From NCBI GenBank assembly GCA_964016885.1, contig OZ024741.1:397482001-397546000 (forward strand): a stretch of DNA of 64,000 bases. Reading direction: 5' to 3'. Origin of the DNA: Eledone cirrhosa. Its lineage: Eukaryota. Made by a program: the position numbers and the translations under genes. A model generated the notes under the pieces. The model was not told the DNA's origin. It did not search any database and worked only from the letters and a program-made list of their open reading frames with translations. This document shows positions 2,694 to 62,277 of this stretch, in pieces. Position 1 is the first letter of the stretch, and every line of letters begins with the position of its first letter.

Positions 2694-3360
2694 AAAGAAT
2701 GAGAAATAAAATAGATTGAGGGGGACGGGCAGGATGGAATTGGAAAAAATGTCTTTAGATAAAAATAACAGGTCCATTCATGTTGACATCTCTTGCAAAA
2801 CTGTTGATACATATATATTCGTAGGAAAATAGGAAAACTCGGCGTAAGGAAACTGTTAACACACCAAAATGCCACCGAAGCGGCGTTGGGTAAAACTTTA
2901 CCTCGAAGGATAGAAATCAGCGGTATTTTGCTGTTTTAATAGCTTCCTTACGCCGAGTTTTCCCATTTTCCCTTCGAATTCTAATATTTTCGCGATCAAA
3001 ACTCGATGCTCGAGTTAATTTTGTTTATATATATATTTATATATGTGTGTTTGTGTGTGAGTATGGATTCAGTTCGGAACTAGCTGTTGAAACGGCAGGA
3101 GCTCAGTCGTCGGGGTCCAATGATGTAGACCAGTTCTTCTTTTTGGGTAAATGCAGTCGATATTCAGAGCGTGGGATTGGGCCCGTGCAAGGCCTTTCCT
3201 CACTAAAAAAGCTTCAAGCACATGCCCCGTTTGATATGTGGCATTTTTGTGATGCACGGTGTTGCTGGCCATAGGCAAGTCCCTGGCAGAACTAAAAAGC
3301 CACGTTCGTGGTGCTCATGCTTAAGTATCAAGTGATGGCATTACTAGAGATCGAGTTGCA

Positions 3361-6913: not shown

Positions 6914-7120
6914 ATAGGAACGAGTAGGACCCCGACGGCTGAGCTCAAGCCGTTTCGACGGCTAATTCTGGACTCAGAGAGTCCAGAATTAGCCGTCGAA
7001 ACGGCTTGAGCTCAGCCGTCGGTGTCCTACTCGTTCCTATTACCCACTCTACTACCCTAAGTATTGAGTACTTTGGTGCGTTATGGTCCACCTGGTTCCT
7101 TACCACATTTCCTTCGTTAT
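6914..7120 (+). mobile_element. Truncated copy of the U3-A8 HHR element family with ~62-bp fold-back (6914-6975 / 6979-7040)
   Basis: Near-perfect hairpin; right arm and tail match 43635-43772; (TA)n on both sides. Confidence 0.88.
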
Positions 7121-9280: not shown

Positions 9281-12200
9281 ATGGACTGCATGCAGGGAAG
9301 AAATGAAATTAAAAGTCAGCGAAACTGGTCAAAGACGGAACTAGAGGTTTTGATCAAGGGGTGGAGCCTGGCTGATGAGTCACCAAGCAAAAACATTGCG
9401 GAGACTCTGAAGAACCATGGCTTTCTGAGGACTTTGGCGCAGATAGACAGAAAAAGAAGAGAAATTGAGAGGGCCTATGTCCTCATAACGCCACACATGG
9501 CCATGCTAAGCCGTGTCCTCAAGGAAGAAAAACGGGGAGAAAGAAAAAGAAAAGGAAGAAAGCACAAGCACGGACCTGAAAGAAAATGAGATGCTCGCTG
9601 CCACAGTCAGGGAAGGCAGGCCGGGCAACCAACAGGCAAACGGTAAAGGTGAGAAGCGAAATCACCTTCCGAAGAAAAACCAAGCAGAGAGGGACCAGTG
9701 GACAACTGTCCAAAGGAAGAACAGAAGGCGCCGAGTAACTGGGAGCAAGAAGACCCAGGTAACGTGCAAGTTCTTCAGGAACGGGACCTATTGGCATGGA
9801 GAAACAGGGACAGGCTTTAGATTCGCTCACCCCAGGCCCCAAACGAACTATGCCCAACCTACTCTCACAACATGCCCCAGCCAAAACCAGAACCGATGCA
9901 AGCTGCCCCAGAAGTATGCTGATGTCGCGCGTGCCACTCCAACAAGGAGAAAGCGCGCATATGCCGACGAGATACAGATGGCGGCAGCAGAGCAAAAAAT
10001 AATGTTCGTGATGGCAGAGAAGATTGTGTGACAGCTGACCTGGCTGCATCGTTTTCAGAGCAAGGGTCACTCACACCACCACTCGAGATCACCTCAATTA
10101 AGAGACCCAGGGTGGCCGCCGCTGACACTAGGACAGGTGTCACACCGACAGCCATTGCTGACACCCCAAATGTCACACCAGTGCTGCTGCTGAATGTCAG
10201 AGGCCTGGTGAAACTCACTAACATGAGTAAAATTTCCTACCTGGGAGACTTAGCTATAAGCAATCAAGCATTATGCATGGCACTAACCGAAACGCACCTG
10301 ACAAGCAGTATAGCAGATGCGGAAATACATATACCAAAATATACTGTATTTCATTCGGACAGAAAGGAGACAACTCATGGTGGGGTTGTTCTGTATATCC
10401 GTGAAGATGTCACACCAATTGTACTGTTGACACATTCAAACTCAGTCTGTGACACACTGATAGTACATATGAAGCAACTAAAGACAGTAATATGTGTCAC
10501 ATATCGGCCACCCGAGGGTAAATTTGAGGATAGCCTCAGTAGGATAGAAGAGGTCCTTGACAAACTGGACCAGTGTCTCAACATTCTACTGCTGGGAGAC
10601 TTCAACCTGCCAAAGGTCAAATGGCCTGAGGGCCATCACCTCCCTGGAATGACATCACTAGAACAGAGACAGACGGAGTCCCTGCTGGCCCTCACACACA
10701 GGCTGTTCATGGAACAAGCAGTACTCCTCCAAACAAGAGGCGAGAATGTCCTATATCTCTGTTTTACAAACAACGAAGTGCTCATCCACAATGTAAAGGT
10801 GACACCAACAATTTTCTCGGATCCTAACTTTGTAGAACTAATGATTTGTGGTCCGAGAGAACAACAGAGACACAACCATCAAGAAGCACCTGGAACTTAT
10901 CCAGCCTTAACTTCTACAAGGCTAACTGGAAAAAGATCAAGAGAGAAATCCGGAAGCAAATATGGAGCGAAAACACTGCCACACAAGACACCAACACATA
11001 TTTTCAACACTTCATGACAACGATACACACTATATGCAAAAAGTTTGTCCCGGAGAAAAAGGCAAACAGACACAAAAATCTTATTCCCAGAGATAGGAAA
11101 ATCCTTATGAGACGAAGAACTAAGCTCTCAAACTAGTTGAATGCACAACAAGAAAACAAAAACAAGAAGGAATCCTATTTGGAACGTGCACTACTTGACA
11201 TCGAGATTGCACTCAAACTTTCCCATGAAAATGAAAGAGCAAAGAAAGAAAGCAGGGCCATAGAAAATATTAAAACAAACCTAAGGCATTCTTTAAATTT
11301 GCAAAAGAGACTGCCTCAGTACACTGCAAGATTGGGCCACTCTTCCATAAAGACGGTTCATTAACCGAGAATCCCCAAGAGATAAGTGAAATACTGAATG
11401 AACAGTACAAAAGTGTGTTCACATGTCCACTGAGCCACATGCAAATAACAAAGCCAGAGGATTTATTTGATGCCACAACACTCCATGAAAAAATGACGAC
11501 CATCAACCACATAGACATAACAGAGGAGGATGTGGTATACGCCATAGATGAAATTAGAACAGACTCAGCTGCTGGACCTGATGGATTCCCAGTAGTCCTC
11601 TTAAAAACGTGTAAGCGGGCCTTAGCAACTCCACTGACGACGCTGTTCAGAAGCTCCTTGGCCAGCGGTAGACTACCCAGGGAGCTGAAAGAAGGTACAA
11701 CAATATGCCCTATCCATAAAGGAGGTAGTAGAGCGGAGGCCAAAAACTATAGGCCAGTCTCCCTGACGTCACATATCAGTAAGGTCATGGAGCGAATCAT
11801 CAGAAAGAAACCGATCACTTTCCTCGAGGAAAATGACCGCCTGACTAGCACGCAGCATTGCTTTCGATCAGGAAGAAGCTACTTTACACAGTTGCTACAT
11901 CACTACGACTGGGTACTGAAACAACTGCTAGACAGCGCATATGTGGACGTGATATATCTTGACTTTGCGAAGGCCTTTGACAAGGTCGACTACGGAATGA
12001 TATGTCACAAACTACACAGACTCGGCATAACTGGAAAAGTAGGTGAGTGGCTGCATGACTTCTTAAAGGACAGAATCCAGACAGTTACAGCAAACGGAGC
12101 CCTCTCAAAGGAAACATCAATAACAAGTGGGGTGCCCCAAGGCACAGTCCTGGGACCACTACTGTTTTTGGTGGCTCTCTCAGACATGCCCTCTGTAGTA

Positions 12201-12736
12201 CATACAACATCCCTCACTAGCTATGCTGATGACACTAAGGTAGCACAGGCAATCAAAAACCCGGCTGATGCTGCCCTTTTACAATAAGATCTGGATGCCA
12301 TATACAAATGGGCGGTTTAATGCTGGCAAATTTCAAGCCCTACAATACAAACCTGCAAACACAAATACAGTACAACACAGTTACACTGGACCAGGAGGGA
12401 CCAAAATGCCCGTGTCGAAATCGATACGAGACCTGGGTATAGACATGAGCGACGATGCATATTTTTCCTTACACATCATGAAAGTGGCGACAATGTGCAG
12501 ACGACTCGTTGGCTGGCTCTTGAGGACTTTCCGGAGGAGAGACCGAGAGACCATGTTGACACTATGGAGGACATTTGTCCTAAACCGCCTGGACTATTGC
12601 TCACAGCTGTGGTGACACCATAGTGTCAAACTAACCACGGAGCTTGAGGCAATCCAGCGAAGCTACACCAAGAGGATTGCGACGATGAAGGAGATAAGCT
12701 ACTGGGAGAGGCTAAAAGAACTGAACCTCTACTCCT
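9281..12736 (+). mobile_element. CR1/L2-group LINE, degraded (ORF1 + APE-RT ORF2), 3' end interrupted
   Basis: APE motifs LLNVRGL, LTETHL, GGVVLYI, YRPP, GDFNLP; RT motifs GPDG, NYRPVSLTS, YLDFAKAFDKVD, GVPQGTVLGPLLF, YADD; several stops and frameshifts. Confidence 0.93.
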
Positions 12737-17518: not shown

Positions 17519-20500
17519 TTACAGGCTGATATAGAGAGAAGACCCATTCACTCTGGCCATTCTCCTTACTTTCACCCACCTTTCATAAAACTTGCTGGGG
17601 TAGAGCACCTCTCTCTCCATTCTGATCCTTCTTTTAAAATGGTATTTGAAAAAGGGGACCAGTTGTTGGCCGGAGAGAAAGGTGTCTGACCTCAGCCCTT
17701 TCAGCCTCGTCCACCATACAACTTCTTTAGCCATGGCTATCACACAGAGAAAAACCGCCTCTCCTTCGTTTTTGAAAGGGGGAGGCGGTTTGATCGTGAC
17801 AATGGACTCGGTGGTCAACCGGATTGGTCCCACCCTCGACAGTAGTCGTTCCACATAGCCCCACAGGTCAGCAATGCCTGGGCAGTGTACGAATGCGTGC
17901 GCAACGGTTTCGTCGTCATGCACGCATCTCGGACAGATCTTATTCAAAGGATCCCTACCCAGGCTCCCATGCCTGTGGAGCTTGTCTCGAACGGGTAGAG
18001 CCCCTCGGTAGCACTGCCAAGCCAGGGACTTTTGGAAGTTGTCCATCGGTCCAGGGCCAAATGTCCTACCGAACAGACTGGCCAGTTCATCTTCCTCCAT
18101 GCCTAGAGCTTCTCCGAGAGTATCGTCGCACCTGCTGCGTACCAACCCTCTATAGAATGTCGAGGTGGAGTCTCCACTGATTGCCGGGTCCGCTTTCCAG
18201 AGGGCCGTGAGCGCCTGGGCACATTCAATGTGCCAGTCGCCCACTTTTCTCGGTCTTTGCTTGACCCAGGATTGCAGCTCGGTGAGCGAGACGAGTCTGG
18301 GAAAGGCTCGCCTCACAAACGAGGCCCACACCGGTTGACCAGTGAGGAATACCTGGAGGTGCCGTAGCCTTAATGCGTGTTTACGCATCTGTAGCCACGA
18401 CATCCCCAGCCCTCCTTTCGAAGGGTGTTGACAGCAGATGGATCTCCTCACCGAAGGGGTCCGCTTGTTCCAAAGAAATTGGAACAGCGCGCACTCCATT
18501 TTGGCGAGTCTTTTCACTGGGCAAGGCACGACGGTCAAGCGGTAGTAGATGACGGATGCTATATAAGCGTTCGCCACCTCCGCTCGACCTTTCAGGGATA
18601 GTTTGCACTGGGCCCACTTCTGGGCGAGTGCAAACACCCTGGCCGTTACCTCGTTCCAGTTTTACTCCACCTGGAGGTCTGGTCCGAACCAGACCCCAAG
18701 CAGCTTCACCGGGCCCTCCGTCCAGCGTCCGACGACGTCGTTGGGGGGTATCAGTTTGCCTCTCCATGTTCCGAGTTGCAAACCGACGGACTTGTCCGGG
18801 TTCAGCTTGGCTCCTGTAAACCTTTCATATTCCTCCAGTAAGGTGCCGATCTCACCGATTTGCGAGGTACTCGACACCATTACTGTCACGTCATCGGCGT
18901 AGGCCGACGCCGCTTTCTGCAATCCCGGTTCCAAAGGGATGCCCTGCAACCGCTCCAAATTCCGCAGTAGTGGCTCAAGGGCCAGCACATACAGAAGGGA
19001 GGAGTGAGGGCATCCCTGTCGGATGGATCGCATGATTTGGAACGGCTCCGAGAGGTGGCCGTTCACCTTGATCCTTGAGCAGACGTTGCTGCTGTGCATC
19101 GCAGCAATCCAACCCCTGAAAACGGGTCCGAAGCCTGCCGCCGCGAGCACCGCATCCAGGTAACGATGGTCAACCCTATCGAAAGCTTTAGATTGATCCA
19201 AGTTGATCAGGGCCCCACCAAAGCCGGGTTTATTCCCTACCCTCTCTATGATGTATCGCATAAGGTGGATATTGTCGTGAATGGACCTGGGCGGGATTGC
19301 GCATGTCTGCGCTTCTCCCACCAGGTTTCCGACAACAAGCGCCAACCTCTTCGCTAACACCTTGGCCAAAATCTTTAACTCTGCATTTAGCAGAGTTATG
19401 GGCCTGAAGTTACATATGTCATCCCCTTGTTCTCGTCCTTCCTCACCAGCGTAACTACGCCCTTGGCCACAGAACTGGGAATTCTCCCGTTCTGCTGCCA
19501 GTTGCAGTAGACCGCTTCGAGGATATCGGAGAACAAGTCCGGCATCGCTACATATAGCTCGTATGGTAGACCTTCGAGACCCGGGGATTTGCGTTTGCCG
19601 CATTGGCTCAGCGCCGCCCCTATCTCAGCAGCTGAAATCGGCCTTTCGCAGGACTTCGCCTCCCCGTCCGAGAGGCGCGGCAGACCGTCGAGGTATGGAT
19701 TAAAATTCATAGTCTCACCCGGCGCGCCGCCCTTCCCGAACAGTTGTGCAAAGTGCCGCTGAAAGGCCGCACACATCTGCCCAGGTTCAAGGATCACACG
19801 CCCATCCTGGTCCTTCAAAGACCAAATCGTGGACTTGTTCCCACTTTTTGCCTCTGTCACTCGGGCCCAGCTAACAGCTTTGGCTCCCTCATTACCCAGA
19901 GCACGTATTTTACTCCTGACAACGCAGCCCTCGTGCTTCACATCAAAGAACTGGTCTAAGGCCATTCTTGATGCCAGCACGCTGGCTACATTGCCACTCC
20001 TAATCGCCTCTTCTACTCTATCTACTAATTCCCTTTCCGTATTGTTCCTATCCCTTGCTAATTCCTGACTAAAACCTATCGATTCTATTCTAATTGCTCT
20101 CTTAAGAGAGCTCCCCCACCTGTTGTTGACAATTTTCCCTGTCAAACTCTGCTTAACTAACGTGCTAATCCGTTTACTGTAAGCTTTGCTTGTCGGTAAG
20201 GACAAGTTCAGCTTCCAGTAACCGGGTCCCTGTCTATGGGTTCTATCAAGGTTGACTATGCAGGTCACTAACTTGTGATCCGAATAGTCAACCATGAACA
20301 TTTTTGGACAGCTAAATGTGTCCCTATCCTTATCTCTAACTAGGACCCTATCTAGGTACGACCTAGATGTTCCGCTGAGATTGGTCCACATCCATAGTGG
20401 TACAGTCAGAAAATCTAGTTGATATCTATCGGCCAAGTCAAATCGGCCGATTAACCTTTTGAGGCTTTTACACCCCCTTCTATTGTCACATGCCCCTACA

Positions 20501-20954
20501 TAGTTCCAACGTGCATCCAGGATACCATTCCAGTCCCCCATTAAAGCAAGGAGCGGGACGTTCCCAGAAAAGTTTCCAGACGTTGGAAGTAGTCCGGCCG
20601 CGCTACCCAAAAAGGGGCGTACACAGCAATTAGTCTATGGGCTCCACTTTCACTACTGCCGACGTCTAAAACCACCAGTCGACCCTCCGGGTCCAGGTGC
20701 ACCTTCTGTATGGCGAGGCCCAGGTGTTTTCGCAGCAGAACGACAACTCCACCCCCACCCCCCGGTTGACAGAGAGATGCGAAGATCTCAAAGTCGTCGA
20801 AGAGGGGCGCTAGTTGGCGCTCGCTGCTGATCCTGGACTCGCAAATAGCCATTACATCCATTCTATGCGACCTGAGATCGTTTAAAAGTTTGCCTTGTTT
20901 CCAAGACAGTCCCAGGCCGCGTACATTCAGACACCCAACTCTTATATCAGCCAT
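17519..20954 (-). pseudogene. Tx1/L1 ORF2 (APE endonuclease + RT + Zn domain), frameshifted into four pieces
   Basis: CLNVRG, VYAP, GDWN, YLDR, SDH; RPITLLN, LDQSKAFDRV, RQGCP, AYADD; CPRC...ETVAHAFVHC. Confidence 0.92.
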
Positions 20955-21550
20955 GTTGGTTAAAAGAGGAAGGACCTACCTGTTCGGCTCCTGAGGAGCA
21001 GGTTGCACAATATCCATGGGCGTATTGGAGGGGTTGTTTGGTGGGGTGTTGTTCTGTGGTGGGGTGGGGGTGTTTGGTGAGGTGTGGGTGTCTTGGGTGT
21101 GGGTGGGGAAACGTTTCAAGAGGACGCGGTTATAGGGTCGAGTACATGTTTTCCCCACGTCCTCAGGAAAGTTCTCTCTTAGTTTTGCATAGGTGTCTAT
21201 TGGGAGTCTTATCATTTTTAAATGCGGTTTGTTGGCCGCGCTTGCAAAGAATTGGCCTTCAGTTTCCACCGAAGGGTCTTTGTGTTTTGTTTTTACTAGT
21301 TCTTTGTTATTTGTGTTAATGTATGTATACTGTTTTGTTTGTATTGTGTTTGTGTTTGTTTGTTGTTCTTGTGTGTGCTTGCGTTTTGTTGTATGTGTTA
21401 TGTTTTGGGGTGGGGTGGATTTTGTTTGTTCTGTTTGTTTTGTTTTTGTTGGTGGTTGTGTGTTTGTTTCGTTTATGTTCGTGTGGTGTTTTCTTTTTTT
21501 TCTTTTTACAGGTTGGAAAGGTTCCCCCCTCTTCGTCACTAGGTGCCGTT

Positions 21551-22747
21551 TCAGCTGGGTCCTCGTCCGTGCTGTCGGGTAGTGGTGTATTTTGGGGTTT
21601 TGTTGTGTTTCTGTGTGTTTTTGGAGTTGTTTTGGGTGGGACCGTGTCCTGTGTTATTTTTCCGTGTTGTTTTTGTTGTTGTTGTTGTTGTGGTGGTGGT
21701 AGTGGTGGTGGTGGTGGTGGTGTGTGGGGTGTAGGCAAAAGAGCCTTTTTTTGTCAATTGAGGACAGGCAGCCCTTAGATGACCCCTGCTTGAACAGTAG
21801 TAACATATGGGCCTCCTACCCTCGGCTGAAATGTATACAAATGTTTCTCCATCGAGGGACACCCTCTGTGGTATTCTAGCTATTCGTTCTGGTCTCATTT
21901 GGACCAGAACCTCCACGCTCAAACCGCCGAAAACGTCTGTGGTGACTTCTCCTACTGAGAGGATTCCGTCCTCGTCTTCTAAAAATCCTGTTAGTACCCA
22001 GGAAATGCATGCATTTGGCCGGATTCCGGAGACTCTTATTTTTTGCGTTCTTTTCCCCAAATATGTGGGGAAAAATGTGTGTAGCTTGGAAACAATTGAC
22101 GACACAGAGTATTTCCTGGCCGTCAATTGATCCTTCATTAGCACCGTTATATTCCCATAGAGTGGCCCTTTTTGTATGAACGATATATCACTCCACACAT
22201 TTTTTAGGACCAGCTCAATTTCTTTTTGGGATAATTGAGCTGGTTTCCTTATGTTGGAAATTGTTCTGAAAGATATCGTTCTTAGTGTCGTGTCTCTTTT
22301 GATTTCTTGTGGGGAGGTCATTGTGAAGTCTCCTCCTTCTTTGAAAGTTACATACTGTTTTGCTTCCTTCATCTTTTCTTTCAGAGTTGTAATGTCCAGT
22401 TGCTTGCAGATCTGTGTTTTTCGGACCGCCTGTGCAAAGGAGGCACCAGTAGTGGGTTCGCTTTGTTTGATGTTATCGTTATTTTTTTCATTTTTTTCTT
22501 GGTTGGTGTTGTGACTATTGCTGTTGTTGGTCGTGCTGTTATTGTCATTGTTGTTCTTGTCTGCGTTTATGTGACTTTCTGGGTTTTCACCCATTTTTAC
22601 AAATTTTTCTTTTAATTCCGTGTTCCATGTTTCTTTTGCAGAAGTGAGGAGGGAAGACTTAGAGCATTGTGCTTCTAGCTTCTCTGTATCACCTTTCTTA
22701 GGGGGCGTGGCTTTCTCGTTAGGATGAGATGTGAAAATTCCGTCCAT
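21551..22747 (-). CDS. Tx1/L1 ORF1, gag-like nucleic-acid-binding protein
   Basis: 398-aa ORF with CYYCSSRGHLRAAC zinc knuckle; low-complexity C-terminus probably continued by frameshift to 20976. Confidence 0.8.
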   Translation of the reverse strand: MDGIFTSHPNEKATPPKKGDTEKLEAQCSKSSLLTSAKETWNTELKEKFVKMGENPESHINADKNNNDNNSTTNNSNSHNTNQEKNEKNNDNIKQSEPTTGASFAQAVRKTQICKQLDITTLKEKMKEAKQYVTFKEGGDFTMTSPQEIKRDTTLRTISFRTISNIRKPAQLSQKEIELVLKNVWSDISFIQKGPLYGNITVLMKDQLTARKYSVSSIVSKLHTFFPTYLGKRTQKIRVSGIRPNACISWVLTGFLEDEDGILSVGEVTTDVFGGLSVEVLVQMRPERIARIPQRVSLDGETFVYISAEGRRPICYYCSSRGHLRAACPQLTKKGSFAYTPHTTTTTTTTTTTTTTTTKTTRKNNTGHGPTQNNSKNTQKHNKTPKYTTTRQHGRGPS

Positions 22748-22956
22748 TCTATCAGTTTGCCGTAATAAATTTTTAAATGTAAAATTCGCCCCAAAAAGGG
22801 GCGAAAATAAATAAACTCAAAGTCTGACGACCCAGGCAAGGGGTTAACGTATATTACAGTACAAAAACAATAAATCAAAACTCACTTTTGAGTAAGTAAA
22901 TCCAACTCGGTAGCCGAGCTTGTTCACACACGTCAACACACGTCTCTCGTATACGA

Positions 22957-28626: not shown

Positions 28627-29183
28627 TGGGAGATTGTCGGTAGGGCTGCACCGTACAACTTCAAGAGGAAATGCGATCTTTGCCTCATGGAGCTCTACCA
28701 CATCATAACTGCACCCCACGAGCTCATCAACAGCAGAGCTGAAACAGCGATAAGTTGTACACATCGCTTAAAAATATCCTTCTTCAGATGGGTTAAGGAT
28801 GAGGAGTGAAACCGTACACCGGATCTCCCTGCAACAAGTCTTAACACCCCAGCGGGCAGGCGCTGCAAAATAACCAGACCCAGCCTCAGACAAACAGATG
28901 CGGCAAAAAGAAAAAAAAAAAAGAAAAAAAAAATTGTCCGGGAAAGACTGCCCTAACACCGGCCGGAGTTACCTCCCTTGACCTGCTGCAAAATCAACAC
29001 AAGCTATTTTTGCGAGTAATGAACCTTGATGTGGATTTAACCCCAAAAACTCTTTCTGAGCAATATACGGAACACTTTTCATTATTTATGCCCATGAGAA
29101 GCCCAACTGGGCGAAACGTACGTAGGTGCTGTTTTAAATAAACATGTTTTAACGGTCTATTCTCCGATTTTTTACTTTCCCAC

Positions 29184-37268: not shown

Positions 37269-37889
37269 CTGTTTCTAATTTTAGGCACAAGGCCAGCAAT
37301 TAACCAGTACATTACTGGTACTTTATTTTATCGACCCCGTAAGGATGAAAGGCAAAGTTAACCTCGATGGGATTTGTATATATAACAAATGTATATATAT
37401 ATATATATATATGATGATTTCTAAAGAATGAAACAGTTCTAGTCCTGTAGAATCTCATCTATATTAAAACTTTTATACTCTGCTATGTATTGAGTACCTT
37501 ACTTACTGTGGTTACCTCCGATTCAACCCGGAATAACGTATATATATATATATATATATTTGTTATATATATATATATATTAATGCGATGAAATACCAAT
37601 GATCGTTGGCAAATCACTGATGAGGGACTCATTTTATAACATGTAAATTCATGTGCCACCACGCAGTATTCTTCTCCCCATATTTTTCATATATATATAT
37701 ATATACACGCAGAGAGAGAGAAAGAGAGTGAAAGAAAAAGAAAAGAGAGAAAGAGGGGGGGGACAAGAGAACAGAGCCAGGTATTAACAACACTATAGCC
37801 CCACCCCAGCCCTAGAAATGCACTGGGGTCACCTACATACACAACTACAGGGAGACAGAATAACATTGATCTTACTGACCTGGTATACT

Positions 37890-42387: not shown

Positions 42388-42469
42388 TTAAGATATTAAA
42401 ACTTTTATACTCTGCTATGTATTGAGTACCTTACTTACTGTGGTTACCTCCGATTCAACCCGGAATAAC

Positions 42470-42507
<38 letters not shown>

Positions 42508-42517
42508 AAAAGTATGG

Positions 42518-42611
42518 CCCCGACGGCAGAGCTCAAGCCGTTTCGACGGCTATTTCAGCACTAAATTAGAATTTTTAGCCTGGTGCATAAATACCCGAAC
42601 TTGTCAAGGGG
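42518..42611 (-). ncRNA. Hammerhead ribozyme, U3-A8 core (TTGACAA), inverted copy
   Basis: cccc-TTGACAA-gttcgggtattt...aaatagccgtc-GAAA-cggc...gccg-TC-gggg. Confidence 0.72.
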
Positions 42612-43584
42612 GTACTTCCTTATATGGGAAGATTGTAGTTGTCAAGCGGATTGGTTAACATTTGTTGTAAACACAAATAAGTCTATCATGGCATTTGGTG
42701 GGAGGTAGGGGTGGCTGAACTTGCCTGTAGAACAATGGGGGGTGAGTGGAGCCGGTCAAGCTTTGAAAGTGATATGTATACAGCAGATTCTAAGGATAGT
42801 GTATGAAATGGAGGAGGTGGGTTATAGAATAGGTAATTCGAATGAGAGTAGGAGACAATAAAAGATACTAGAAAGAAATAAAAAAATATATAGAATTAGA
42901 TAGTGAGAAATGAATAAAAAAAATCACAATGCTATCTTACAATTACAGGTTAATAAGTTGAGAATAGAAAACAATTGTAGAAATGGAGTAGTACCAGAAC
43001 TGATACAAAATTAAAAGGGTTTAACACATCTGCTATAAGTAGTTAGTAAAACGTATTCGGTCAATTCTATCTTTAAATTACAGGGGTGGGGGAACTGATG
43101 TTACAAGGCCCGATGGGCTGCATCGGGGTAGGTGAAAGGGGAAAAGCAGACGAGGAAGAAAATAGGGGGTGGAAGGAAGTGATAGGATGAGACAGGGGGA
43201 AGAAGAAGACATAGAGGAAAAGAAGAGAGATACATCTACCTATGTAAGCTGGGGTTTCCCCTAACTTATTCGGCAAGTGGGGGGGTATCAGCCCTTGTCT
43301 ACCCACCCGGGTCGTTATGGGGTTTGAGGGCGAGGTAAGTTCTACGCAATCTGTGTTTGCATGCGGTTACCAGTTCGTCTTTCTTGTTTAGGAGTTGGTC
43401 CTTCAAAAACAGCATTTGTAACATCACTTTCAACGCTTGACCGGCTCCACTCACCCCCCATTGTTCTACAGGCAAGTTCAGCCACCCCTACCTCCCACCA
43501 AATGCCATGATAGACTTATTTGTGTTTACAACACATTTTAACCAATCCTCTTGACAACTAAAATCTTCCTATATAAGGAAGTAC

Positions 43585-43678
43585 CCCCTTGACAAGTTCG
43601 GCTATTTATTCACCAGGCTAAAAATTCTAATTTAGTCCAGAAATAGCTGTCGAAATGGCTTGAGCTCTGCCGTCGGGG
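43585..43678 (+). ncRNA. Hammerhead ribozyme, U3-A8 core (TTGACAA), GUC site
   Basis: cccc-TTGACAA-gttcggctattt...aaatagctgtc-GAAA-tggc(ttgagctct)gccg-TC-gggg. Confidence 0.75.
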
Positions 43679-43771
43679 TCATACTTTTTCCTATTTTCCA
43701 CTCTACTACCCTAAGTATTGAGTACTCTGGTGCGTTATGGTCCATCTGGTTCCTTACCACAATTCCTTTGT

Positions 43772-44340
<569 letters not shown>

Positions 44341-50063: not shown

Positions 50064-50640
50064 GATCGGTAAGAGCAACTGAGTAAGTAAATATTTAAAT
50101 TATATTTTTTTATTTATTTTAAAAAATTGTTTGATTTTTGCTTGTTCTGCTTATCTCAATATTATAGTTCTGGTATGTCAAATTAATACCTTTGAACAAC
50201 CCTGTATCATAGACAACCTATATATTTCCAGGGGTACTTAGTATCCGTGGGCATATTAACTTCTTTTAATATTCTCCGTTATGTAGAGAACAAATCTGTT
50301 GTTCTATTTAGCTGCTATTTTTAGTAGTGTAGTAGACAACATGTCTATGTTTACTTCCGCTCTTGCTACGGACTGGTTCATGTACAGGTCAAATTTCGGC
50401 CTCACTCGATCTTGTGCTAGCTAGCAGATGGCAATATATTTTGCCGTTCCTGGGACTTTAGCCCTAGGAAAGGAAAATACTCTCTGATGAACTTTACTTT
50501 TCCATTGGAAATCCCATGGATTTCCAATGTTTTGTGAAGGGAAACCGATCGGTAAGAACAACTGAGTAAGTAAATATTTAAATTAGATTTTTTAATTTAT
50601 TTTAAAAAATTGTTTGATCTTTGCTTGTTCTGCTTATCTC

Positions 50641-55128: not shown

Positions 55129-55707
55129 ATAAGTTGAAATAAAATGAAAACGAAATTTCATTTCTCACTCTTAGTACGGCACTTACTTAAATGTAAGTAT
55201 GTATGTATACGTACATACATATATGTATACAGACGTACAGTAGCATGCATATATATATATATATATATACATACAGGTACACATACATATATGCACGTAT
55301 CAGTTTAGCGGACGCTTATTATAACGCCGCTTTGTTCGTTTGTAAACAAACTGAACAGCCTGAATTTATGCCGTACGGTGTTAAGGCAACCACGTCACCT
55401 TTTTGTTCAACACTGACACAGGAACGATGTACTAGTTTCAAGCTTGTTAGCTATCATCAGCACCGTATACCCTTCTGCCAGATAGTTGAACGTTCGAAAG
55501 TATATACTTTCCTTATGAAAATTAACGGCTGAGCAGCCTAATTTGCATATCGAGTGAGTTAAGTCGGTCAGGCATACCGAAAACGATAAGTTGAAATAAA
55601 ATGAAAACAAAATTTCATTTCTCACTCTTAGTACGGCACTTACTTAAATGTAAGTATGTATGTATACGTACATACATATATGTATACAGACGTACAGTAG
55701 CATGCAT
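55129..55707 (-). mobile_element. Non-coding HHR element: ~457-bp unit + ~120-bp direct repeat
   Basis: 55129-55250 repeats at 55586-55707; part recurs at 63920-63980. Confidence 0.72.
55424..55466 (-). ncRNA. Minimal hammerhead ribozyme
   Basis: acggtg-CTGATGA-t-agct(aaca)agct-t-GAAA-ctag-TA-catcgt. Confidence 0.8.
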
Positions 55708-56326
55708 TACACCCTACCTAATCATTTTTCTTAAGTAAATTAAATATCATCCAGCATGAATTACCTACCCCTGCATATTAACTCTCTAAAAAGGGAAATC
55801 ATATCAAACTCCTGTCCACCATTTGCCTCCATCATGGATCAACTAAGCACTCTTGCTATATTAACACATTTTGATCTGCTTATCTTCAAGAACTATGCCT
55901 GTAAATAACATTATTTTTTCTTTCACATTGACTTATTATGCTCCACATTTTTTTCTTTTTTCTTTTCACTTCATAAACCTTGTTTGTAAATTTGTAAATA
56001 ACATTATTCTTTCTGCACCATTTCTTTAACATGTCCAACACCACCATTCTACACCAATACATATTATCATTTGATAATGCATAAAAATGCTGAAACCGGT
56101 AATAGACAATTATTAAATATATAAATAAATAAATAAATGCCATTGTTAATTAATAAATAAGTCAACTAATACCTTAACACTTCACACAAAGTAAAATATT
56201 TCGTTTTAATCATTTTCTAACCCAGAAAAAAGAGAGAAAGATATAAAAAGGAAAAAAATATATTTTTCTTCCTAATAATCGTCTTTTTCTCCGTTTTCAT
56301 ATATATATCTGTGTATATATATATGT

Positions 56327-57505: not shown

Positions 57506-57702
57506 ACAAAGGAATTGTGGTAAGGAACCAGATGGACCATAACGCACCAGAGTACTCAATACTTAGGGTAGTAGAGTGGGAAATAGGAAAAAGTGTGACC
57601 CCGACGGCAGAGCTCAAGCCGTTTCGACGGCTATTTCTAGAATAGCCGTCCAGAAATAGCCGTCCAAACGGCTTGAGCTCCGCCGTCGGGGTTGCACTTT
57701 TT

Positions 57703-57708
<6 letters not shown>
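57504..57708 (-). mobile_element. Truncated U3-A8 HHR family copy with fold-back
   Basis: 57583-57638 / 57652-57708 inverted; matches 43635-43772. Confidence 0.85.
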
Positions 57709-61491: not shown

Positions 61492-62277
61492 ATGCATACA
61501 TGTATGTATATATATATATATATATATACATACATACATGTATATATATATATATTTTTACATACATGTATATATATATATATTTTTTACATACATGTAT
61601 ATATATACGTACGTTATTCCGGGTTGAATCGGAGGTAACCACAGTAAGTAAGGTACTCAATACATTGCAGAGTATAAAAGTTTTAATATAGATGAGTTCT
61701 ACAGGACTAGAACTGCTTCATTCTTTAGAAATCATCAGGAATCTGGGTATCAAAAAATAAGTATGGTATTTATACAAGTGGGGAGTGGGATGGGTGTAGG
61801 TCATTGGTTGATAGAAAAGGGAATTCATTAAAAGCTAATTCTACAAAGCTATAGTTTATTTTTATTTATTTTTGTTTTTAGAGTAACAAAGGCAGACAGA
61901 ATTCTATAAACAGGTTCAGGATGGCATGCCACTCCTTATTATTAAGTTTCTCTTAAGCTAACAGGTGTCTATAAGATCAGTGGGGGGGTCAGTCATGGTA
62001 GATAGATTTAAAGGAAAGGGAGATTCTTTAAAAGCTAAATTCATTAAGGTTCTACTAAGTGACAAAGGTTTAGAGAATTCTGTAGACAAATTCAAAATAT
62101 TGAGTGCATATCATACAATTATCCTCAAATTTCTCTTAAACTGTTCAACTATATGCCAAAAATCAACAGACACATTCACAAAACACACTCACTCACACAC
62201 TCGCACCCATAAACACACATACACACACACATACACATATACACACATATACACACATATACACAGATAAATATATT

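Follow-up and report, generated by a model that had tools for sequence, protein, structure and literature searches.

A fold-back Penelope-like fragment of Eledone cirrhosa carries a hammerhead-type motif whose 3-8 pair varies among subfamilies

The insertion described here lies within a 64,000-nt stretch of the Eledone cirrhosa genome (the window), and we consider it reasonably probable, if well short of assured, that it is a dead fold-back fragment of a Penelope-like retrotransposon whose end repeat carries a type I hammerhead, likely slow or protein-assisted, with a 3-8 core pair that has drifted through C-G, U·G, U-A and C·A. Judged by its letters, the motif is of the hammerhead type and of type I, with self-cleavage predicted, and is likely a slow or conditional self-cutter. 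What the analysis adds is the clan around this copy, in which a single structural frame accommodates the 3-8 pair in four natural states, together with the copy numbers of these states and the order in which they descend.

On sequence grounds the insertion at 42502-43775 is a 5'-truncated, inverted and folded-back fragment of a Penelope-like retrotransposon with protein motifs of the Hydra clade. The inverted 3' end stands head to head with a direct end repeat, which terminates 20 nt past the predicted cut site and is followed by a tail (Table 1). An earlier note on this DNA had delimited the element as 42518..43678; these letters were confirmed, but the bounds had to be corrected to 42502-43775, including the 81-nt tail. 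The same note had given the core for both arms; these are one insertion event and do not count as independent observations of it. The left-arm motif carries five private changes, one of which disrupts a stem II pair, and when the copy is folded as a single RNA, 92/96 and 89/96 motif bases pair with the opposite arm. Since both arms come from a single insertion and would pair with each other, the window copy is probably inert.

Table 1. Features of the insertion and of related motifs in the window
Feature	Position	Strand	Basis or remark
Inverted 5'-truncated 3' end of element, ~920 nt (ORF end, 3' UTR and end repeat)	42502..43421	-	92% identity over 930 columns to unit 3' end in locus L032; same match in L031, L033, L034, L036 and L038
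End of the RT/GIY-YIG ORF, final ~41 codons (bounds approximate)	43299..43421	-	tblastn, residues 111-151 of endonuclease-region query, 93% identity in L001
Hammerhead motif, left arm	42518..42611	-	core 42601-42607; predicted cut after 42522
Direct end repeat (part of pseudo-LTR)	43423..43694	+	inverted repeat with 42502-42773, 272 nt, 95%; 96% to L032
Hammerhead motif, right arm	43585..43678	+	core U3-U4-G5-A6-C7-A8-A9 43589-95; two private C-to-T changes
Initiator-like TTAGTC, A at 43634 = 40 nt before predicted cut	43631..43638	+	5'-end pile-up of short family copies
81-nt tail = beginning of next unit, one arm only	43695..43775	+	comparison with fetched loci
(TA)n target, left junction	42472..42503	.	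sequence; (TA)n/(TG)n also after 43772
Short fold-back copy, sister subfamily; both arms begin at -40, without hammerhead 5' half	6914..7114	+	repeat comparison
Short fold-back copy with tail, without hammerhead 5' half	57507..57707	-	repeat comparison
Motif 3' half, older sister subfamily, begins at -40	3067..3117	+	repeat comparison
Minimal hammerhead with palindromic stem III, from another Penelope family of Hydra type	29090..29129	+	endonuclease motifs, family alignment

The core TTGACAA is present in both arms (43589-43595 on the plus strand, 42601-42607 on the minus strand), as the note had stated. This 7-mer occurs 14 times in the window against 13.1 expected, showing no excess over chance, so that the case depends on the context of the core. 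In the right arm, this context consists of a 4-bp stem I (CCCC/GGGG, 43585-88 / 43675-78), a stem II of 56 nt (43596-43651) that runs from G10.1-C11.1 through a 2x1 U loop into nine pairs and a long irregular extension, the GAAA at 43652-55 (GAA 43652-54), a stem III of 5 bp with a 9-nt loop (43655-73) and a GUC at 43672-74 that places C17, and the predicted cut after it, at 43674. The elements thus follow the type I order of stem I, core, stem II, GAA, stem III, NUH and stem I, with a stem I of 4-5 bp. All three stems and the GUC are there as had been claimed, although the stem I next to the core reaches merely 4 bp in the window subfamily, and stem III is a true hairpin with the palindrome GAGCTC in its loop. 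The Rfam hammerhead models gave no match to the window motif at gathering score or at E values up to 10, which the long stem II and the variant core may explain. The 5-bp helix III at 43655-43673 also sets the motif apart from the minimal, dimer-only hammerheads of Penelope-like elements, which have a helix III of 0-2 bp and a palindrome; by folding energy, a dimer duplex of the window motif is also possible.

In an alignment of 39 best matches, in which the window arms are included twice, 34 rows of the window subfamily carry TTGACAAG, confirming TTGACAA as the consensus. The wider family was surveyed using anchors outside the core, which returned 7,151 matches (21 in the control). Among these, C3·A8 was found in 1,657 and G8 in 76, the latter divided by hand count into 61 U·G, 14 C-G and 1 A·G, and a hand count of the first 100 matches gave 63 U-A, 20 C·A, 1 U·G and no C-G, the other 16 having a different change or being due to chance. 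The U·G state is the norm in small subfamilies, where 31/33 copies have G8 and none A8. Majority sequences were built for 13 subfamilies from 142 copies (5 unassigned), with 2-31 copies each; eight have U-A, as in the window subfamily, two the mismatch C·A (A3 and B) and three the wobble U·G (E, G and H), and because some of these copies were fetched by a core pattern, the class calls lean on the counts of anchor matches. The core 3-8 pair is not strictly covariant in the clan: the 1,657 C·A matches and the U·G subfamilies contradict strict covariance. The double change does not by itself establish selection on catalysis, a claim only partly supported in view of the same C3·A8 share (1,657/7,151), the U3·G8 subfamily norms and the existence of copies that read through the predicted cut.

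A C3-G8 state was found in an older relative, a family diverged by ~20% with the core CTGAAGA in the same frame (L216-L245). With the same stem III and tail, the canonical core is present in 15/23 rows (14/21 distinct) and TTGANAA in none, in a search that used a canonical query; TCAGTT lies 40 nt from C17, and only short copies were found. An endonuclease beside this relative in L264 was considered as its ORF and rejected, as it belongs to another insertion; as no ORF is linked to the relative, only the end repeat informs the root state. A sister subfamily with a canonical core and the same stem II was likewise considered and rejected, the C3-G8 matches being mostly sporadic changes in C·A subfamilies; those outside this group are a minority of the old subfamily G.

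The order of these states was addressed using two trees of the 3' part of the ORF, with 19 copies in one and 25 in the other; the root is a midpoint root. The U·G subfamilies lie near the base, followed by U-A (A4, A) and then by a C·A grade (A3, B), within which the U-A subfamily D is nested with support 100/98. Monophyly of the U-A groups (A, A4, D), which were named after the first tree had been seen, is rejected (p-AU 7e-6). The tree suggests that the 3-8 pair was lost and then regained, and in the simplest reading single transitions would lead from C-G to U·G, U-A, C·A and again U-A, the U-A state having also been reached in F. Recombination between ORF and end repeat could blur the order in the tree. 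Subfamily D (L116, L117, L134, L246-L249) consists of abundant, very similar copies in which U3 has apparently been regained and stem II is closed at its base; here the strict hammerhead fold coincides with the fold of lowest energy (P 0.47), making the subfamily the strongest candidate for a cleavage assay.

Outside the 3-8 pair, the core bears signs of constraint. Across the 13 majorities U4, G5, A6, A9, G10.1, C11.1, G12, A13, A14, U16.1 and C17 are invariant, all four bases occur at N7, and variation is restricted to U or C at position 3 and to A or G at position 8. Majority H, built from two copies, has T at 15.1, yet 3/4 distinct H copies have A. In loop II, 10/35 columns are invariant. 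When 20 real copies were tested for pairing, 91% of cells paired compared to 31-51% in slid structures, and three stem II pairs changed on both sides, with none doing so in stems I or III; these copies are related, and the stem II changes trace to few events (F/F2/G vs the rest). In folding predictions, 6/13 majorities have the three-way junction as their fold of lowest energy, and in three more it comes within 1 kcal/mol of the minimum. The strict fold lies 2.9 kcal/mol above the minimum in the right arm and 1.2 kcal/mol in the left, and the predicted occupancy of the strict active fold is 0.0004-0.08, with D alone reaching 0.47. The z-scores for folding are weak (-0.3 to -2.2), GAAA can be hidden by a competing hairpin with a probability of 0.01 in subfamily A and 0.5-0.7 in B, C and the left arm, and G10.1-C11.1 is isolated by the 2x1 loop from the remainder of stem II. 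The fixed remaining core, the free N7 and the covariation in stem II would fit a ribozyme that is retained but slow.

The arm is multicopy in the 3.0-Gb genome, with 1,960 candidates (40 scored), in line with the family status that had been proposed. The autonomous parent, whose identification the note had called for, was found as an RT/GIY-YIG element of ~3.1 kb: ten fetched loci contain units of this size in direct and inverted arrangements, and the majority sequence of the aligned copies contains a single open stretch, 767 codons long. Single copies contain RWR, DKT, QFDI, YRDDG, a CxCx5C linker, VIY..YIG without CCHH, and CxxC..E..N..CxH, and the ORF motifs were found in L031-L034, L036 and L038. 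They match what is listed for Penelope-like elements of the Hydra clade (PMC8557442), including DKT, CxCx5C, the absence of CCHH, CxxC/CxH flanking E and N, and the (TA)n target; the first motif is RWR and not RWK. [quoted passage not shown] Pfam yielded no match at a useful score for 12 protein pieces and none for four parent pieces. A homologue search returned 416 proteins; among the 120 matches listed identity was 31-49%, and most were unnamed.

Endonuclease motifs at L034:6089-6542, L105:1867-2320, L077:2616-3069 and in L264 reveal at least two further Hydra-type Penelope families, indicating that the clade is diverse in this genome. In the window itself, another repeat ending in (TA)n is found at 42400-42470, 37468-37577 and 61569-61682; it shares AGTATTGAGTAC-like letters with the tail of the insertion analysed here and is perhaps the tail of another Penelope family. 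The window also contains LINE-type fragments at 9923-12287 (+) and 17519-22816 (-), with an endonuclease, RVT_1 (E 3e-22), zf-RVT and a weak zinc knuckle.

A survey of 80 evenly spaced 10-kb stretches (800 kb) recovered 27 element ends, which by extrapolation (27 in 0.8 Mb) corresponds to ~100,000 ends in the genome. The 3' end lies at about +20 from C17 in 15 cases, at +100/101 in 11 and at the locus edge in one. The predicted cut is spanned by 23/27 ends and none starts there; the whole motif is present in only three. Similarly, of 119 tail-bearing copies from all loci, 101 span the cut and four begin within -2 to +4, one per position and with no peak. That copies span the predicted cut indicates that their templates were uncut or rejoined there.

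The 5' ends cluster elsewhere, with 16/27 between -43 and -30, and 24 of the 93 ends within -60 to -23 sit on -40 or -39. Joints in the contigs of one public run also favour 43634, these contigs reflecting nothing beyond how the repeat is truncated. Among the public runs listed, no RNA run contained the element, which counts neither for nor against its expression. The base at -40 is the A of TTAGTY or TCAGTT, a motif that we take to be initiator-like, and it lies 40 nt before C17 in 14/14 majorities, the older relative included. Penelope elements are described as carrying a promoter in the end repeat (PMC2377424, PMC3846280). The A at 43634 is likely a transcription start within stem II. Stalling of the reverse transcriptase is an alternative cause of the peak, but the peak is located inside the arm of the hairpin, away from its base. 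A permuted hammerhead cutting at -40 was rejected on inspection, as the flanks are unable to form stem I or stem III. The 3' halves that the note had reported elsewhere in the window were found, with extents of 3067-3117, 6914-7114 and 57507-57707, and a start site at -40 would account for these short copies. More generally, the peak offers a simple account of the very numerous short fold-back copies.

In the reading that we favour, the element protein would nick (TA)n and reverse transcription would start downstream of the cut site, at a distance of 20 or 101 nt, transcription having begun at the initiator-like A within stem II. Priming in the upstream repeat would then run off the end of the RNA, which would generate the many short fold-backs. 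Copies would be made only from RNA that is uncut or rejoined at the cut site, which would favour a ribozyme that folds but is slow, with selection on the 3-8 pair relaxed and the other core positions kept. For one Penelope hammerhead that has been tested, the element protein is reported as required for cutting, and the hammerhead as dispensable for insertion in vitro (PMC11167929). A mutational scan of one hammerhead, as reported in part of PMC9901934, found the 3-8 pair to be rescued only by a G-C swap, with low activity for other single and double changes, suggesting slow cutting as a possibility for U-A, U·G and C·A alike. The 1,657 matches of the C·A subfamilies speak against a slow cutter in so far as they are equally compatible with a dead motif, and we consider it possible, though unlikely, that the motif derives from a hammerhead, no longer cuts and is kept as a core promoter and as a binding structure for the element protein. 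Its promoter parts would be a TATA-like element at about -31, the initiator at +1, a conserved G at +24 and GAGCTC at +29 to +34. The spread of C3·A8 and U3·G8 subfamilies, the low activity of changes other than G-C in that one hammerhead (PMC9901934), the lack of a peak of 5' ends at the cut (0/27 sampled ends), the rarity of whole motifs (3/27) and the exact 40-nt spacing in 14/14 majorities, even in the older relative with its different stem II, all agree with such a loss of cutting. It accounts poorly, however, for the 5' half of the core, which, situated upstream of the predicted start by ~40 nt, still has U4, G5, A6 and A9 fixed and N7 free while neighbouring loop positions vary (10/35 loop II columns invariant), and for positions 3 and 8 changing by transitions only, with U3 regained in subfamily D.

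The view taken in the earlier note, that of an efficient ribozyme with a strictly compensated U3-A8 pair held by selection on catalysis, seems to us quite improbable. Of all the states U-A is the most frequent (63 of the first 100 matches, 8/13 majorities), it has here arisen in two or more families that are unrelated, it was apparently regained in D, where the strict fold is the one of lowest energy, and U3-A8 hammerheads are stated to be active in vitro (PMC3088659). Against this stand the 1,657 C3·A8 matches and whole U3·G8 subfamilies (31/33 G8, no A8), the changes by single steps without a double jump, and the expectation that efficient cutting in the 3' repeat would destroy the template for the copies that we observe. 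A chance likeness in the terminal inverted repeat of a DNA transposon or MITE has next to no probability left: the 272-nt inverted ends, the TA target, the chance frequency of the 7-mer and the failure of Rfam to match would agree with it, but the arms correspond to the 3' end of an element encoding RT and GIY-YIG, occur in direct and inverted arrangements and have a one-sided tail, and an older relative has the canonical CTGAAGA in the same frame. The parent ORF and this relative refute it, and arm lengths that differ between copies, together with an RT-encoding parent, rule out membership in such a transposon family.

Returning to the slow, possibly protein-assisted hammerhead, we put forward only tentatively, as somewhat doubtful in its entirety, a fuller version in which the clan would represent a natural walk from C-G through U·G, U-A and C·A back to U-A, and in which a ribozyme tuned to be slow would be overlaid by a core promoter that splits it at the 5' end of the RNA and leaves it whole at the 3' end. 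If true, mismatched 3-8 states exceed a thousand copies and the subfamilies constitute a ready-made allelic series for the function of Penelope hammerheads. Cleavage rates across the subfamilies would directly test whether activity tracks spread.

For the most part this is an ordinary find: a known core variant in a known kind of element. The natural covariation to U3-A8 was described as active in vitro in 2011 (Perreault et al., PMC3088659), and in 2014 U3-A8 was reported in end repeats of Penelope-like elements of Schistosoma mansoni, with ~1,300 matches (PMC4209133), the supplement of which includes two U3-A8 rows; neither the core nor the presence of hammerheads in Penelope elements is therefore new. 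With those Cercyon elements (Cervera and De la Pena 2014, PMC4209133) the present family has in common, as far as the consulted part of that paper goes, a type I motif in the end repeat with a U3-A8 core, copies often paired on opposite strands and palindromic letters in helix III; low activity is given there for the metazoan motifs tested. It differs from them in its full 5-bp helix III hairpin, its 54-59-nt stem II, in which a 2x1 loop follows G10.1-C11.1, and its sister subfamilies with U·G and C·A at 3-8. The high-copy mismatched states also set it apart from the natural U3-A8 hammerheads, which share the covariant pair and for which the consulted part of PMC3088659 describes no such states. 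The literature searched yielded no account of subfamilies that carry C·A or U·G in high copy, nor of a start site within stem II.

With the Hydra clade, as presented in part of Craig et al. 2021 (PMC8557442), the shared features are RW[RK], DKT, CxCx5C, the missing CCHH, CxxC/CxH around E and N and the C-terminal GIY-YIG, as well as (TA)n targets, inverted 5'-truncated copies, a tail and a sense-strand hammerhead near the 3' end. In its file S2, however, 26/26 rows have CTGANGA (C3-G8) with short stems II, obtained with a general descriptor that perhaps missed variants. The unit is ~3.1 kb here, whereas Hydra elements are generally <3 kb, and the tail is 81 nt compared to 30-40 nt for Penelope-like elements (PMC8557442). 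The same source calls the role of hammerheads in these elements unclear. In the Poseidon element PAc of Anolis carolinensis (Frangieh et al. 2024, PMC11167929, consulted in part), two RT start sites define the tail, as proposed here, and uncut RNA is the main template, with no reads at the cut site, just as copies here span the predicted site. PAc differs in its canonical C3-G8 core, its clade and a hammerhead overlapping the start codon, and it is in PAc that protein-assisted cleavage has been demonstrated.

Several other hammerhead motifs are found in the window. The one at 29090 fits the minimal dimer type of Penelope-like elements and, as the note had suspected, represents a second, unrelated A8 lineage, with TTGAGAA (U3-A8) in 25/26 rows of its family; ATGAGAA, which had been taken for the core of that lineage, is private to the window copy (1/26 rows). 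The motifs at 55460 (-) and 2690 (-) are canonical minimal hammerheads (CTGANGA, palindromic stem III) from two other multicopy families, whose relatives in the fetched loci mostly retain the canonical core. At 50484 (+) and 1207 (-), hammerheads of low-copy families combine a canonical core with long, branched stems II, meaning that a long stem II is not unique to the family described here. A third U3-A8 candidate, at 56071 (+), has TTGATAA, a 4-bp stem II, a palindromic ACCGGT and a weak stem I, with one near-identical relative, in L151.
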